Virus record (IMG/VR): IMGVR_UViG_3300009716_000731
Location: 1 to 64,000 of that record
Length of the DNA stretch: 64,000 bases
Reading direction: 5' to 3' (one strand)
DNA from: a virus
Lineage: Duplodnaviria; Caudoviricetes
Below, in pieces: positions 5,977 through 52,250 of this stretch. Within the stretch, counting starts at the first letter, position 1; each line of letters opens with the position of its first letter. The position numbers and the translations under genes are program-made. The notes under the pieces are model-generated. The model saw only the letters and a program-made list of their open reading frames with translations, searched no databases and was not told the DNA's origin.

Positions 5977-6207
5977 TTAATTTGCTAACATTTGATATAA
6001 ATTATCTTTATGTTGTAAAAGTTTTATTTTTAATTGGTTTAATACCTCGTCAGATGTATTCTCTGCACCAGTTTTTATTCTGTGAACCTCATGTTCTATT
6101 TTGTGATATTCGTCAAATAGTTTTCTAAAATGTGCATTTTCGATTTTCATTTTATGAATTTTCTCAGAAAATTCTGGGAACTCATTCAATAAGCTATGTT
6201 TTTCCAT
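5977..6207 (-). CDS. YdcH/DUF465 family protein
   Basis: HSLLNEFPEF..KIHKMK.ENAHFRKLFDEY...LK...L..KDNLY..L pattern. Confidence 0.75.
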   Translation of the reverse strand: MEKHSLLNEFPEFSEKIHKMKIENAHFRKLFDEYHKIEHEVHRIKTGAENTSDEVLNQLKIKLLQHKDNLYQMLAN

Positions 6208-27968: not shown

Positions 27969-29066
27969 ATGAAAAACTATATTTATATTTTGAAAGACCC
28001 AGTATCTAATGAAATTAAATACGTTGGAAAAAGTAATAATCCTGATAATAGACTTAAAAGACATCTTAGTGAGTCTAATCTAGTTGAATCTTGGACTTCT
28101 AAAAATAAGTGGTTATTATCTTTAAGAAAAAATAATTTATTTCCAATAATGGAAATTATTGATTCAACTGAATTAGATAATATCAACGAGTTAGAGGTTT
28201 ATTGGATAAAGTATTATCGTAATCTTGGTTTCAAATTAACTAATAGTACTGATGGTGGTGATGGTTTTGACTGGACTGGTAGGAGACATACCAACGAGTC
28301 TATCAAGCGGTTGAGATTATGTCATCCAAATAGGAAAGAGATTATTCAATTTGATTTAGCTAACAAAATAGTTAAAATTTATAATTCTATTCATGAATGT
28401 GAGTCTATTACTGGTTTAAGTCGTTCACATATAATTAAATGTTGTAAAAATGGTAAAAATAAAACCGTTGGTGGATTCTATTTTAGATATATCGATAATT
28501 ACTTTCCTTGTATTAAATCAATGACTGAACCTGATATGATTTATATAAATTCTAAAATAGAGGAATTCAATTTATCAAAACCGACTTATATAACTAAAAA
28601 AGAAAAATTAAGAAATAAATTAAAAGAGTCTGTTAAATCTAAGAAAAAGTCGATAATACATTATGATTTAGATGGTAATATATTAGGTAGATACGAATCT
28701 ATGAGTGAGGCTAGGAATTATACTGGATGTCACATCGGGTTAATCTCTAATTGTTGTAATAAAAAGAGTTATTATACAGTAAATAGCACTACTTTTAGAT
28801 ATGAGGGTGATGTATTTGATTATAAGCCTTATAATGTTAGTATTCAAGTTAATAGTAAAAGGGTATGTAAGTATGATTTAGATGGTAAACTAGTTGAGAT
28901 ATATGATTCGATCAAGCAAGCTATGAGAAATAATGGTATAACTAGTGATTCTAACATAGTATCTTGTTGTAAAAAGAAAACTAATAAGAAAACAGGTAAA
29001 TTTATTAAAGTTAAAGGATTTACATATAGATACTTTGACGAAACAGAAGGTAGAGATTTAATATAA
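27969..29066 (+). CDS. GIY-YIG homing endonuclease with NUMOD1-like repeats
   Basis: YIYIL...KYVGKS..R...H; LTN.T.GG; three x YDLDG..I..Y.S...I..CC repeats. Confidence 0.85.
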   Translation: MKNYIYILKDPVSNEIKYVGKSNNPDNRLKRHLSESNLVESWTSKNKWLLSLRKNNLFPIMEIIDSTELDNINELEVYWIKYYRNLGFKLTNSTDGGDGFDWTGRRHTNESIKRLRLCHPNRKEIIQFDLANKIVKIYNSIHECESITGLSRSHIIKCCKNGKNKTVGGFYFRYIDNYFPCIKSMTEPDMIYINSKIEEFNLSKPTYITKKEKLRNKLKESVKSKKKSIIHYDLDGNILGRYESMSEARNYTGCHIGLISNCCNKKSYYTVNSTTFRYEGDVFDYKPYNVSIQVNSKRVCKYDLDGKLVEIYDSIKQAMRNNGITSDSNIVSCCKKKTNKKTGKFIKVKGFTYRYFDETEGRDLI

Positions 29067-29095: not shown

Positions 29096-29497
29096 TTATG
29101 ATTTATAAAAATCTCCTTTTTCTTCAACATATTTAAGTCTTGTTTCCTCAGCTTGTTTTCTTAACTTAACATATTCTTTTCTTAAAAGTTGAATTTGTTG
29201 TTCTTTTTTACTTGTTTCTAAGACAACTTTGAAATCGATTATATTTTTTAGTTTTAAGTACCAGAAGAAGTTATTAAAAGATTTTTGTCCTCTTTTTTTA
29301 TTGATTACAAAAATTCTTCTTGCTAATTTTTTTCTTCCTGATTGTGTTAAGTGATCAATCTTAAAGTTTATAAACTCTAAGTGTGATTGTTCTTCACCAT
29401 CTACTTTTATTACATATTTTTTATTTTTTGCAACCTCTGTTGCTAAAACCATTATATCTTTAAGGTTTTTGTTTAATTCGTTTACTTTTGTTTCCAT
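29096..29497 (-). CDS. basic hypothetical protein
   Basis: 133 aa; preceded by the amber-containing leader. Confidence 0.75.
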   Translation of the reverse strand: METKVNELNKNLKDIMVLATEVAKNKKYVIKVDGEEQSHLEFINFKIDHLTQSGRKKLARRIFVINKKRGQKSFNNFFWYLKLKNIIDFKVVLETSKKEQQIQLLRKEYVKLRKQAEETRLKYVEEKGDFYKS

Positions 29498-29521: not shown

Positions 29522-29584
29522 TTATTTTTTTATTGACCTAAGAAAAAATATAAAAGTTGGACCTCTGATTACAATCTATCTCAT
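29522..29584 (-). promoter_or_regulatory. amber-containing leader ORF MR*IVIRGPTFIFFLRSIKK*
   Basis: ATG AGA TAG ATT at 29584-29573. Confidence 0.6.
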
Positions 29585-29591
29585 ATTATTA

Positions 29592-30185
29592 TTATTTTTT
29601 GAATTCTGTAAATTTTTTAATTTTGAAAATTCTTCTAACATTTTCTAATTTAGCTTTTATATCAGTAAGAAGTTGTGTTTGTTCTTTATTAAGATCAAGT
29701 TTTTCAACTGCATCCACAATAGCACAAGTTTCTCTGTAATAGTTATTTCTAAATCTTTCAGAAGCTGTGAAAGCGTCTGCAATATTATTAAATCTATCTG
29801 ATAGCTTAACTGTTAAAGCATTTTCTGACATGTGAGTCATTTTGTAAATAAGGTAGTCCATTTTACTACCACCCCATTTATGTTTAATTTCATCTGTATC
29901 TGATGTTAATTCTAAAACTATATCAGCAATTTCTTTTCCAAAGATTTCTTTGATTTCTGCATAACCTTCCCATTTGTTTTCAAAGCAATCTTCAATTACA
30001 TCATGTAAAAGCGCAGCTACCAAAACAACAACGTTGGTTGTATAGAGCTTACAAGTTCCATTTACTTTTTGCACGTGAGCATCAAAGTAAGGCTGACCTG
30101 TAAATTTTCTTACTTGTCCTTCGTGTTTTGCTTTAGCATAATCCCATGCTAATTTTTCTAGTTTTGTTATAGGTGCGTTCGCCAT
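29592..30185 (-). CDS. HD-domain protein, RelA/SpoT hydrolase-like
   Basis: A..KHEGQVRK.TGQPYF.HV, AALLHDVIED, VKLSDRFNN. Confidence 0.85.
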   Translation of the reverse strand: MANAPITKLEKLAWDYAKAKHEGQVRKFTGQPYFDAHVQKVNGTCKLYTTNVVVLVAALLHDVIEDCFENKWEGYAEIKEIFGKEIADIVLELTSDTDEIKHKWGGSKMDYLIYKMTHMSENALTVKLSDRFNNIADAFTASERFRNNYYRETCAIVDAVEKLDLNKEQTQLLTDIKAKLENVRRIFKIKKFTEFKK

Positions 30186-30830: not shown

Positions 30831-31751
30831 TTAATTTTTATTTTTTAATAAAGTAAGCACTTGCTTTCCTCTTTTATCGATTTGTTTATATTTTATCTTA
30901 AATGATTGACTTTCAATACCACCAAACATACTTGCGTTTGCGTGTAATTCACAAAGTGCAGTAACTAATAAGGTTAAAACTGTTTGTATTGAATTATTCT
31001 TAACAAAATCTTCTACTTCATTTGCTTTGATGGTATGAAATACCATATCCTTTAAGATTAAGTCTGCGACAATCTTATTGTTAGAAATTTTGTTATAAGT
31101 ATCAAATGAAACTTGTGCGTGGTTTGGAAAATGTCTTTTACCTTCTTCATCAATCATAATACAGTAAGGTTTACCACAATCATGCATTACTTGATATTCA
31201 GTAATATCTTTTTCTGAGTGTAAATTACTCATAATAAAGTCTCTATTATCAGTAAACCAAGTTGGTAGTTTCCAATTCTCGGTTTTATTATCTGATAAAT
31301 CTTTGAAGTGTTTAGCTACAGAGAGGCCGTGTTCTAATACATTTTGTGTATTAGTTTGCGGAGTATTGATCATATCAGATATGACTTTATTGAAAGATGA
31401 TTTTTTAGGTTTACCTAAAAGTGGAAGGTATGAAACTTTCTTTCTGACATCTTTATCTGCATATAAACAAATAGATGTAAGTTCATCATTTAAGTCGGGT
31501 TCGTAAAATTTTGTAACAGGAGTTAATTTAGATAACTTTTGATATAAAGCATCTAATTCTTTTTTATTGTTTACTTGTAAACAAATGATTGAGTTGGAAT
31601 TTTGTTTCCAATCATTAAATTGTTGAGGAAATTCGTGTGCAAAGTCTGCAACTGAATGACAACTTTGTTGACTCTGATAACCATAACTAAGATCTGATCT
31701 TGTTATAACCATCATTTTTGTTTTCTCTTGTTTGTTTTTAATCTAAGTCAT
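30831..31751 (-). CDS. Pth2-like peptidyl-tRNA hydrolase domain fused to an HD domain; proposed start ATG-ACT-TAG-ATT
   Basis: KMMVITRSDL..G....Q..H, FYEPDL...LTSIC (Pth2-like); EHG...HDCGKP...HFPNHA (HD); ATG at 31751 is 12 codons upstream and in frame with 31715, TAG at 31743-31745. Confidence 0.75.
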
Positions 31752-31774: not shown

Positions 31775-32659
31775 CTAATTTTTTTCAATATTATCGGAAT
31801 ATTTTATTCTAAATAATTTTATATTATTATTTTTACAATATTTATTTTTAATATTATCTCTCTTTTTTGAAATATGTAGTGCCTCGTTTCCTCCAAAATA
31901 ATCAACTGCCTCATAGTGTTGCCTACCATCGTACTCTATACATATATTGTATTCATTTAGATAAAAGTCAAATTTTAATTTTGATTTATAGATACAATCA
32001 TCAAATGTTTTATTTCTTATAAATTTTATATTACTATTAGATAGGTATTTATCTATGAATATTTCACCTTTTGAATCGCTACACTTCTTACACCCAAATC
32101 CTTTTAGATGATGATAAGGTGATTGAGTAAATTCTCCATGTTTTGGACAAACTATTGTAACTTTTACACTATTATTTATAAAAATAGTTTTATCATAATT
32201 ATATTTATTACTATGTATATCTTTTGCAATTTCTATAAACTCTGATTTTGTTTTATTATAATTATTTGAGCACTTTGAGCATCCTATACCTTTTATATGA
32301 TGTAGTGGAAGTTGTTCAAAGTTTCCATGTTCTGGGCAAGTTATGATAATTTTGGTATTTGTGTTTATATAAATGGAATTTTGGTATTTGTACTTATTTT
32401 TATGTATTTTATTAGATTCATTTATAAAATTTTCTAAACCCTTTGAGGATGAAGTACTTCTTTTCTCATTACCACACTTTGGACAACCACATCCTTTTAA
32501 GTAATGATTCTTAGGGCTTTGAGTGAAATTTCCATGTATAGGACAAGTTATAATAATTTTGGTATTATTATTTATATAATTAGAATACTCGTATGAGTAA
32601 AAGTTATTATGTTTTATTGATGACTTTTCAATAAATATCTGTAGTTTTTTATTTTCCAT
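31775..32659 (-). CDS. putative homing endonuclease (ITCPxHGxF...GCxKC repeats plus Vsr/DUF559-like domain)
   Basis: Three zinc-finger-like repeats; FDFYL...IEYDGRQHY. Confidence 0.8.
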   Translation of the reverse strand: MENKKLQIFIEKSSIKHNNFYSYEYSNYINNNTKIIITCPIHGNFTQSPKNHYLKGCGCPKCGNEKRSTSSSKGLENFINESNKIHKNKYKYQNSIYINTNTKIIITCPEHGNFEQLPLHHIKGIGCSKCSNNYNKTKSEFIEIAKDIHSNKYNYDKTIFINNSVKVTIVCPKHGEFTQSPYHHLKGFGCKKCSDSKGEIFIDKYLSNSNIKFIRNKTFDDCIYKSKLKFDFYLNEYNICIEYDGRQHYEAVDYFGGNEALHISKKRDNIKNKYCKNNNIKLFRIKYSDNIEKN

Positions 32660-32719
32660 ATTATATATATTAAAAAATAAAAATGGTTTGTTGTGGTTAG
32701 TAACCTTAATCTACATCAT
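32660..32719 (-). promoter_or_regulatory. amber-containing leader MM*IKVTNHNKPFLFFNIYN in frame with the endonuclease ATG
   Basis: ATG ATG TAG ATT at 32719-32708; 20 codons to the ATG at 32659 with no other stop. Confidence 0.6.
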
Positions 32720-32754: not shown

Positions 32755-32832
32755 TGATCCCACCAGGATTCGAACCCGATAACGCTGGGTTTAGAAGCCA
32801 GCTCACCACCAAGGTGATTACGTTGAAGGACC
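32755..32832 (-). tRNA. atypical tRNA with CUA (amber) anticodon
   Basis: GGTCCTT/TGGGATC-A acceptor; T arm TCGGG-TTCGAAT-CCTGG; anticodon arm GCTGGC-TTCTAAA-CCCAGC; non-canonical D arm TCACC-TTGGT-GGTGA; TATCTTTG promoter just upstream. Confidence 0.75.
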
Positions 32833-32883
32833 ATTTCTTTAATTGTTATACAAAGATACAACTATTTTTTATACCACCAAATT

Positions 32884-33424: not shown

Positions 33425-34444
33425 ATGAAGTATATTAAAACAGTTGATGAGTATTCTATAAATGAAGAATTGGAATTCAAAATGAGTTGGAGAGGATTTT
33501 TATTAGGTATATGTATTGTTGCTGCTTATAGGCACTATTTTCCTGCTAAGAAAAATCTCACTTTAGGTGAAATGAATAGAATTGTTGCTGATGTTGATAA
33601 CAAACCCACATTAAAAGAAAAAATTGCTATTAATGCTATAAAAAATAGCTTAATATCAGATCTTAAGCAAGATAAGAAAATCTCAGATGATGAAAGAAAG
33701 AAGCTAATAGATGGTATTAATACTATACCTTTTGTCTTAGTTGATACTGATACTATCCAACTAATTACTGGAAGGGATGCACTTGGTTGTTATTTTGGTT
33801 ACTTGGATAATTTCAAGAATCTAATGACAGTAATATTAGTTGATAGGGAAAGAATTAAATTAGGTACTGATTTTGATGAGGTTATACTACATGAGTTAAG
33901 ACATTTAGTTGATGATTTATTGGTTGATGGTAGAAAAGAATACAGTGAATTATCAAATATTGTTGATATATTAGACAAGGATATTGTTTTGAGGAATGAA
34001 GCAGGAGAGAGAAAGATAAGAAAAAAGATAAATGATTATATTGACGTAATGGTTAAAAAAACCGGTAGAGAAAATGATCCAAAGACTCAGGAAATTGGTC
34101 AAAGACTAAAAGATCAATATTTTGATATTATTTTTTTAGATAAAGATAAAATGAATTATTTAACATCATCATCGGAGATATATGCAAGATTTCATGGATT
34201 AAAAAGATGGATGATAAAAAATGGTTATCTAAAAGATATGAATAGTGAAATAACACAAGATATTATTGTTAAAATGATGCAAAATGAGCAATTGTTGGAT
34301 GTAAATATTATCAGAAAAGACTTCTTCCAATTATTATTTTATATGGATGTTGATTTTATAGGTAAAACGAAAAGTGATGTATCTAAACTAAACTCAATTG
34401 TAACAAATTATAGAGATTATATATCAAATGAAAAACCCGCTTAA
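33425..34444 (+). CDS. N-tagged zincin-like metalloprotease with a TM segment
   Basis: MKYIKTVDEYSINEE, hydrophobic stretch, LHELRH (HExxH), downstream EIYAR. Confidence 0.7.
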   Translation: MKYIKTVDEYSINEELEFKMSWRGFLLGICIVAAYRHYFPAKKNLTLGEMNRIVADVDNKPTLKEKIAINAIKNSLISDLKQDKKISDDERKKLIDGINTIPFVLVDTDTIQLITGRDALGCYFGYLDNFKNLMTVILVDRERIKLGTDFDEVILHELRHLVDDLLVDGRKEYSELSNIVDILDKDIVLRNEAGERKIRKKINDYIDVMVKKTGRENDPKTQEIGQRLKDQYFDIIFLDKDKMNYLTSSSEIYARFHGLKRWMIKNGYLKDMNSEITQDIIVKMMQNEQLLDVNIIRKDFFQLLFYMDVDFIGKTKSDVSKLNSIVTNYRDYISNEKPA

Positions 34445-35700
34445 AAGCGGATTTTTTCTTTTATAGCAGGCATATAAATTTCAATCAAATCGATCAATTC
34501 TTTTTTACATTCTAAAGTCAATGATTTACTTTTATTTTGATTCATCAAAATCATAAATGAACTAACAACTTTATTAAACTTAAAAGCTTCTGTATAGTCA
34601 AATATAGTTTTCTTAAATACTTCTATGTCAATAGTTTCCTCACCAGTTTTTTCCAACCAAGTTTTCATTCGATTAATAAATCGTCTAATACCAATTATAT
34701 TTTCATCTGACCAAGAACCACCATCAAAATAGTGACCAATAAACATCAAGTAAAATCTAATTTCATCTGAGTCATAACCATCCAAACTTACTACATTATC
34801 TTTTGACTTAGACATTTTTTCACCATTATTCAATATCATTCCTTGGTGTATCAATTTAGTAATAGGTTCCTCAAAATCAATAAAACCTATATCATACAAA
34901 AACATTGTAATAAATCTAATGTAGATCAAATGCATACAAGCATGTTCTGATCCACCAATATACAAATCTGCTGGTTTTGGTTTAATACCTTTCATCAAAC
35001 AATAAACAATAGTATAGATAGAACTATCTACAAAAGTGTCCATTGTATCGGTCTCACCTTCAATTGGAATAGGACAACCCCAATTTCTTTGTCTTGATAC
35101 GCACCAATCATGTTGATTTTCCAACCAATTTCTTTGAGCTTTTATCGTTGATTCCGGAAAATCGATTTTATCCAAATTAGCAATCAATCTTTCTTTATAA
35201 TCAGTAATTCTAAAATACCATTGATTCAAAATTTTCTTTTCAACTTGATTTGAGCATCTATCACATTTACCATCTTTTACTTGCTCTCTTGCCAAGACGG
35301 TTTCGCAACTATTACAAAAGTCAACTTCACCATCTTTTTTATAAGCCAATCCTTTATCATACAATTGCTTAAACAACCACTGTGTCCATTTAATGTATTC
35401 AGCATCTGAAGTAATCAACATTTCCTCATATTGAGTATTCATGTTTTTCATTTGCTGTCTAAAGTTTTCTATATTTTCATAGGTAACTTCTCTTGGATCC
35501 CTACCTACTTTTTTCGCATAGTTTTCTGCAGGCAATCCAAAAGCATCATAACCAAAAGGTTGAAAAACGTTAAATCCTTGATAACGCTTATATCTACAAT
35601 AACTATCTACAATAGCATAGTTATACCAATGACCACAATGCAATCCTGACCCTGATGGGTAAGGAAACATTGGAGTTATATACAAATTTTTTTGATCCAT
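34441..35700 (-). CDS. minimal leucyl-tRNA synthetase-like protein
   Basis: MFPYPSGSGLHCGH, GYDAFGLPAEN, DWCVSRQRNWG.PIP, ETDTMDTFVDSS, YIGGSEHA.MHL, KMSKS; 419 aa, CP1 editing and C-terminal domains missing. Confidence 0.88.
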   Translation of the reverse strand: MDQKNLYITPMFPYPSGSGLHCGHWYNYAIVDSYCRYKRYQGFNVFQPFGYDAFGLPAENYAKKVGRDPREVTYENIENFRQQMKNMNTQYEEMLITSDAEYIKWTQWLFKQLYDKGLAYKKDGEVDFCNSCETVLAREQVKDGKCDRCSNQVEKKILNQWYFRITDYKERLIANLDKIDFPESTIKAQRNWLENQHDWCVSRQRNWGCPIPIEGETDTMDTFVDSSIYTIVYCLMKGIKPKPADLYIGGSEHACMHLIYIRFITMFLYDIGFIDFEEPITKLIHQGMILNNGEKMSKSKDNVVSLDGYDSDEIRFYLMFIGHYFDGGSWSDENIIGIRRFINRMKTWLEKTGEETIDIEVFKKTIFDYTEAFKFNKVVSSFMILMNQNKSKSLTLECKKELIDLIEIYMPAIKEKIRF

Positions 35701-52161: not shown

Positions 52162-52175
52162 TTCGGATTTTTTAG

Positions 52176-52250
52176 TGTCCGTGGTAGGGTTCGAACCTAC
52201 GCGTCTCCTCGTTATGAGCGAGGCGCCTTAACCAACTTAGCTACACGAAC
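52176..52250 (-). tRNA. tRNA with CAU anticodon (elongator Met or Ile2)
   Basis: Canonical cloverleaf GTTCGTG...CCTCG-CTCATAA-CGAGG...GTAGG-TTCGAAC-CCTAC-CACGGAC-A; no encoded CCA. Confidence 0.9.

Follow-up and report, generated by a model that had tools for sequence, protein, structure and literature searches.

Our analysis showed that a huge phage with a standard genetic code carries a 78-nt tRNA(CUA) gene of non-canonical shape at 32755..32832 on the minus strand of the window (the whole 64-kb stretch of DNA analysed, taken from the start of an IMG/VR virus record of 151 kb with an estimated completeness of ~26%). Judging from its conservation and covariation, this element is a selected RNA gene and not a relic, and it is probably a working amber suppressor tRNA that unlocks one or two UAG-gated genes lying close to it. 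Relatives recovered via genes in common are phage contigs that reach 519 kb; the G+C content of the window is 27%. Coding density hardly depends on the code used, being 0.877 with code 11, 0.888 with TAG read through and 0.885 with TGA read through, and genome-wide reassignment of TAG was rejected because of this nearly flat profile. The record contains two in-frame internal TAG junctions, both of which are ordinary adjacent genes.

The sequence of the element had been given, with its helices, in a preliminary description of this DNA; it matches the minus strand exactly and every helix named there is present. We assign the gene from its sequence, from covariation and from a model (R1) built from close copies, which scores the element at 108 bits and finds it as a single copy in the record. 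Its parts, all on the minus strand, are the acceptor 5' strand (32832-32825), a connector (32824-32818), the D hairpin (32817-32803), the anticodon arm (32802-32784), the variable loop (32783-32779), the T arm (32778-32764), the acceptor 3' strand (32763-32756) and a discriminator A (32755); CCA is not encoded. The anticodon CUA (32792..32794, element positions 39-41) lies within a 7-nt loop, UUCUAAA, and its central place, already proposed, is confirmed by its conservation among homologues. This loop, the T loop UUCGAAU and the D loop UUGGU, with a GG of the G18G19 type, are canonical features and all of them are conserved. The layout is not that of a canonical tRNA, which would have a 7/5 cloverleaf with a 2-nt connector, a 4-bp D stem, a residue 26 and a score above threshold.

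ARAGORN made no call at the element in standard, relaxed-score or intron mode; its only find, both in the window and across all 151 kb of the record, was a tRNA-Met (52175-52250). The Rfam tRNA model RF00005 also found this tRNA-Met and gave no gathering-level match at the element. The best match of the Rfam tRNA clan over the element was tRNA-Sec, with 16.3 bits against a gathering score of 47 (RF01852); we rejected membership of that family on this score, on the anticodon (CUA, not UCA) and on the short variable loop. Neither the tRNA nor the tRNA-Sec model accommodates a connector of 7–8 nt. Minimum-free-energy folding returned the D hairpin, a 5-bp anticodon stem, the T arm and the acceptor stem with z = -1.8, but thermodynamic folding is not significant by itself (z from -0.65 to -1.8), so that comparative evidence is needed for the structure.

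Close copies were sought by pattern scans and in loci anchored on a neighbouring leucyl-tRNA synthetase (LeuRS) gene, and five further distinct ones were found (L002, L038, L039, L041 and L045), each behind the same promoter. They are 90–99% identical to the window element, while their downstream flanks are 47–71% identical. A distant copy, L163:6397-6476, scored 38.9 bits against the model from the close copies and comes from a phage in which the HD-domain gene shows just 56% identity to that of the window. Pattern scans of IMG/VR DNA returned only L002 and L163 as relatives, the remaining matches, which were discarded, being tRNA-Arg(UCU) genes of canonical form or a canonical suppressor unrelated to the element; GenBank phages gave generic T-arm matches and nothing homologous to the element.

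Among the six close sequences, in-helix changes all keep pairing, with the exception of an A.G at the fifth T-stem pair of a 7/5 reading in two of them. Two D-stem pairs covary (17:29, U-A/C-G; 18:28, A-U/G-C/G.U), and the other variable columns are wobble-compatible positions of the anticodon and acceptor stems, loop position 38 and the variable loop. The preliminary description had called for a covariance test of the unusual helices, and this test indicates that they are real: when L163 is added, compensatory changes are seen in 12 of 23 pairs and pairing in 91.9% of cells, figures which lean towards the model's structure, considering that the seven-sequence alignment (A4) was model-guided (MAFFT misaligned L163), and in which most of the covariation is contributed by the single divergent sequence. 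None of 500 shuffles reached the observed pairing and covariation, and slid controls paired at 33–57%. The compensatory changes fall in three helices, namely the acceptor, D and anticodon stems, and L163 retains the odd layout even though most of its stem pairs differ on both sides. The anticodon is invariant, with CUA in 7/7 sequences of this form (type A, L163 included) and in 4/4 of a sister form (type B, see below), and so are Y32, U33 and A37 of the loop in type A, L163 and type B. It had been held that a lack of covariation or of a conserved CUA among homologues would speak against the element. Both are present, and the conserved fold and CUA bear out the idea of a remodelled, non-canonical tRNA with a central CUA.

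The comparison also refines the fold. The data favour an 8/4 arrangement, with a predicted 8-bp acceptor stem containing one U.U and a 4-bp T stem. Acceptor pair 8:73 is C-G in six sequences and changes to G-C in L163; U7.U becomes U-A there, so that all eight acceptor pairs of L163 are perfect. A fifth T pair would have to be A.G in two sequences and U.C in L163, which argues for a T stem of 4 bp. An 8-bp acceptor stem in turn makes the connector of the window element 7 nt long rather than 8. The rest of the fold comprises a connector of 7–8 nt, a 5-bp D stem with a loop of 5–6 nt, and an anticodon stem of 5 bp that ends in a conserved mismatch beneath the UUCUAAA loop; residue 26 is absent. 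This closing mismatch is never a true pair, six sequences having C.C and one A.C, and both it and U7.U stay mismatched throughout the window's clade. L163 shares the arrangement, with a 4-bp T stem, an 8-nt connector, a 5-bp D stem, a GG-containing D loop of 6 nt and an anticodon arm made of a 5-bp stem, an A.C closing mismatch and the loop UUCUAAA. The variable loop is 5–6 nt, and the discriminator is A in the type-A elements of the window's clade and G in L163. Of the architecture first described, the long connector, the 5-bp D stem with its 5-nt loop and the missing spacer before the anticodon stem thus stand, while the 8-nt connector is better read as 7 nt and the 6-bp anticodon stem as 5 bp plus a mismatch. 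A proposed AAC:GUU contact between connector and variable loop finds a counterpart in GAA:UUC of L163, two compensatory changes by direct reading in one sequence.

The element appears to have its own promoter. A predicted Bacteroidota-type promoter lies at 32851..32881 (minus strand), with TTTG at 32881-32878 and, after 19 nt, TATCTTTG at 32858-32851; its end is 18 nt from the 5' end of the tRNA. TTTG and TAnnTTTG form the established Bacteroidota promoter consensus, and TTTG-N19-TAnnTTTG motifs precede both genes and the element. The motif is kept ahead of every type-A and type-B element as well as of many genes in related loci.

The probable target of the tRNA is a two-domain gene for a tRNA-cleaning enzyme at 30831..31751 on the minus strand, 1 kb downstream of it, which encodes a PTH2-like domain (Pfam PTH2, E = 1.8e-6) and an HD-type ('HDCGK') domain. 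Its leader reads ATG ACT TAG in frame, with the ATG at 31751-31749 and the TAG at 31745-31743, and a conventional ATG follows 12 codons downstream at 31715. A leader TAG is present at codon 3 or 5 in 6/6 orthologues. In three of these loci (L118-L120) the conventional ATG is replaced by TTA, and there is no ATG, GTG or TTG for ~120 codons. A profile of the C-terminal HDCGK domain (A3) extended the comparison to 31 loci, in which TAG gates at codons 2–9 recur on PTH2-like and/or HD genes down to 34% identity, often without an alternative start. Many orthologues have no start codon for 44–121 codons past the TAG, yet the conserved domain begins directly after it, which argues that the TAG must be translated. 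In 15 of the 21 distinct distant loci ARAGORN found an ordinary tRNA(CUA) within 3.5 kb, whereas it found a tRNA(CUA) in none of the 33 LeuRS-anchored loci. Since distant loci pair gated genes with an ordinary tRNA(CUA), the odd element holds a normal suppressor's place in a conserved module of tRNA and gated gene.

A possible second target lies between the two, namely a 294-aa zinc-ribbon/DUF723-like ORF at 31775..32719 (minus strand) with an in-frame ATG ATG TAG leader, the TAG of which (32713-32711) is 17 codons ahead of a conventional ATG at 32659. The leader is shared with the one orthologue found, in L121, where an in-frame insertion of 6 nt precedes the TAG and a single synonymous change is the other difference; with two near-identical copies to compare, the case for a second gated gene is weak. 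In L121 (2984-4879) the sole stop of this ORF is the very TAG that gates the PTH2-like gene, so that read-through there would fuse the zinc-ribbon/DUF723-like and PTH2-like proteins. Other gates were seen as well. In distant phages a third gene family (N-terminal ...YTQ[YF]VPS) has a TAG at codon 3–5 beside a CUA tRNA (L140:1658, L143:1788, L141:2995), and in IMGVR_UViG_3300006467_000563 (L123/L144) a gated gene has the reverse domain order, HD first and PTH2-like last, with a gated start ATG TTG TAG ~45 nt past the canonical tRNA(CUA) that ends a tRNA/tmRNA array. In the window itself, a gene for a RelA/SpoT-type HD hydrolase domain (29592-30185, minus strand; HD_4, E = 1e-12) lies downstream of the gated gene, and a GIY-YIG/NUMOD homing endonuclease (27969-29066, plus strand) is encoded near it.

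We propose that a host-type promoter of its own would drive transcription of the tRNA, that cellular or phage enzymes would trim both its ends and add CCA, and that some synthetase would charge it for the decoding of UAG. Ribosomes would thereby be carried through the UAG at codon 3 of the PTH2-like/HD gene, and perhaps also through that of the intervening ORF, and synthesis of the PTH2-like/HD enzyme would depend wholly or largely on the presence of a working suppressor. That so odd a tRNA would be processed, charged and accepted by the ribosome is what we infer, and our views of the amino acid carried and of the reason for the gating are inferred likewise.

Several observations count against a suppressor. 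TAG is the stop of 22 of the record's 156–158 or so long ORFs (14% of genes), and behind these 22 we saw no back-up stops nor any tendency towards them, so that a strong suppressor would extend many phage proteins. An ATG shortly upstream of a 5'-bounding TAG is only weakly enriched genome-wide (4/23, versus 8/120 for TAA). The motif ATGNNNTAGATT occurs three times where 2.35 are expected, which is not above chance; a 'ATGNNNTAGATT regulon' was therefore rejected as a motif, its third copy (29584) opening nothing but a 20-codon frame with a TAA stop. This third unit, ATG AGA TAG ATT at 29524-29584 on the minus strand, is upstream of a 133-aa ORF (29096-29497). The gated gene of the window also has a conventional ATG ATG at the start of its domain, so that here the UAG leader is not strictly required. 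Moreover, we know of no precedent for a connector of 7–8 nt among working elongator tRNAs. In favour of a suppressor, 8/4 tRNAs are known to function as suppressors with bacterial ribosomes (PMC5389517).

The closest sister phages (L005-L010) carry, in the same slot behind the promoter, a CUA element of another kind, 65–66 nt long, which we call type B (L006:7854-7918, L007:7832-7897, L008:7840-7905 and L009:8087-8152). Its D arm is absent and replaced by a linker of 7–9 nt, and its anticodon arm is long and irregular, with an internal loop and three covarying outer pairs. The anticodon loop YUCUAAA is again closed by a mismatch and reads C-CUCUAAA-A. Two of the four sequences have degenerate T loops and two have acceptor mismatches. 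Type-B elements presumably work, given that their phages keep TAG-gated PTH2-like genes without alternative starts. D-armless tRNAs of the mitochondrial type, which are organellar and work with specialised factors, resemble type B in this respect; the window element keeps its D hairpin.

The defects of type B are among the points that would suit a tRNA mimic, that is, a non-decoding decoy or regulator that might, for example, sequester a host anticodon nuclease, RF1 or some other factor that binds tRNA, with the ATG..TAG units being independent mini-ORFs of the start-stop or bar-like kind. The abnormal shape, which standard tRNA models reject, would suit it too, as would the 14% of genes for which the phage retains a TAG stop; and a two-codon ORF ahead of a peptidyl-tRNA hydrolase gene recalls the bar minigenes of lambda. 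We nevertheless consider a mimic unlikely. The TAG must be translated in the many orthologues without a nearby later start, canonical tRNA(CUA) genes fill the same slot in distant phages, and a decoy has no need of an exactly conserved Y32-U33-CUA-A37. The uncharged regulator or decoy envisaged in the preliminary description is hard to reconcile with conserved in-frame UAGs that open neighbouring genes and need a UAG reader. Decay to a functionless tRNA pseudogene is the least credible explanation, in our view barely worth entertaining: it would account for the failure of tRNA finders and for the invariant U.U and C.C mismatches, but the element is far more conserved than its flanks, its promoter is conserved, and its layout is retained in the distant phage of L163. 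The compensatory changes in the acceptor, D and anticodon stems largely refute this explanation.

The remaining alternative takes up a likeness of the acceptor end to tRNA-Arg, noted earlier and indeed visible against phage tRNA-Arg(UCU), also in the loop. On this account the element derives from a phage tRNA-Arg(UCU), has a 9-nt anticodon loop and either still reads AGA, perhaps as a form resistant to an anticodon nuclease, or reads the quadruplet UAGA with a frameshift. The acceptor end and the string CUUCUAA are like those of canonical tRNA-Arg(UCU) genes of related phages (L013, L060), the conserved closing mismatch permits a 9-nt loop, and an A follows both long-ORF leader TAGs (31745, 32713) and the TAG of the mini-ORF at 29584 (TAG ATT). 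On the other hand, the type-B loop, C-CUCUAAA-A, would place C and not U at position 33. A four-base reading of UAGA throws the downstream ORFs out of frame while a triplet keeps them in frame, and the residue after the gate varies in distant loci (I, V, A, T, N, M, L), all of which makes such a tRNA-Arg derivative very improbable.

The element extends two known kinds of tRNA, 8/4 tRNAs and phage suppressor tRNAs, of which it is a structural variant. Phages with recoded stop codons (code 15: Lak, crAss-like and others) encode suppressor tRNA(CUA), and the element would, as proposed, be a phage-borne UAG reader like theirs; it differs in that TAG is not reassigned genome-wide in its phage and that the tRNA is structurally non-canonical. 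Another such case is XacN1, a jumbo phage with the standard code and two CUA tRNAs with no identifiable target (PMC5852040). By comparison, a specific candidate target is visible here, in the form of a UAG in the first few codons of PTH2-like/HD genes. As for 8/4 and 9/3 tRNAs, some are phage-borne, and some are stop-anticodon suppressors active in E. coli; they have long variable arms (Mukai et al., Nucleic Acids Res 2017, PMC5389517; these comparisons draw on part of that paper). Like the 8/4 allo-tRNAs, the element divides its 12-bp acceptor/T branch 8/4, combines a long D stem with a small loop and has an anticodon stem of more than the usual length. It differs from them in its 5–6-nt variable loop and A73 (G73 in L163), where allo-tRNAs carry G73 or U73 and the long variable arm that goes with serine identity. 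Its single-stranded acceptor/D connector of 7–8 nt is not described for allo-tRNAs in that part of the source.

A kinship with tRNA-Pyl, suggested earlier, was not borne out. The likeness consists of the CUA anticodon, a 5-nt D loop, an anticodon stem of six layers and D and anticodon stems that adjoin directly. In tRNA-Pyl the connector is 1 nt long and the variable loop 3 nt, residue 73 is G, G18G19 and TΨC are lacking and PylRS is the partner, whereas the element has G18G19, a standard T loop, A73, a variable loop of 5–6 nt and a long connector. PylRS (PylS; TIGR02367) had no match in the 151-kb record, itself an estimated ~26% complete. Our full-text literature search turned up no account of either the gated module or this fold.

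Because standard finders miss the gene, phages of this kind seem to lack a suppressor, and those of their genes that a UAG interrupts give the impression of being truncated or of starting at the wrong place. The 8/4 class would be extended by a form with a short variable loop and a 7–8-nt connector, apparently braced by a small helix between connector and variable loop, which offers a test case for the extent to which the tRNA core can be rebuilt and still function. Together with the gated PTH2-like/HD gene, the tRNA suggests a compact natural translational switch, made of a private suppressor and a stop codon that opens one or two genes. Such a switch would account for amber suppressors without targets in standard-code jumbo phages such as XacN1, and tRNAs of this kind are candidates for new orthogonal parts in genetic-code expansion.

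As to charging, a truncated LeuRS of bacterial type (419 aa; 34441..35700; TIGR00396, E = 6e-112) is encoded upstream of the tRNA on the same (minus) strand. This LeuRS core keeps the HIGH-type motif HCGH and KMSKS and is without the CP1 editing domain and the C-terminal domain; its best match among solved structures is 3ziu, the LeuRS of Mycoplasma mobile. A73 and U35 of the element are compatible with leucine or lysine identity. One could thus imagine that the 8/4 shape and long connector hide the tRNA from host synthetases and that the LeuRS core, 1.6 kb upstream, is its dedicated charger, the two making up an orthogonal aaRS/tRNA(CUA) pair of natural origin in a phage with the standard code. 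If so, the phage would have, in the UAG at codon 3 of the PTH2-like/HD gene, an indicator that its own translation module is active. We think this pairing quite unlikely. The LeuRS core adjoins the odd tRNA in the closest clade only, and none of the 25 loci outside that clade has a LeuRS within 3.5 kb. A LeuRS was accordingly rejected as a conserved partner of the odd tRNA, and the charging enzyme of its own that the preliminary description had allowed for is left without comparative support. More distant LeuRS-bearing phages have the gene beside tRNA-Leu arrays, with no CUA tRNA. In L016, L022, L023 and L026-L028 the LeuRS core (match at 6001) comes directly after such arrays, and several of those tRNA-Leu genes are 74–75 nt long and lack the long variable arm that tRNA-Leu usually has. 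Within a tRNA array of a phage, at L016:5176-5248, ARAGORN called a tRNA with a four-base anticodon (acat).
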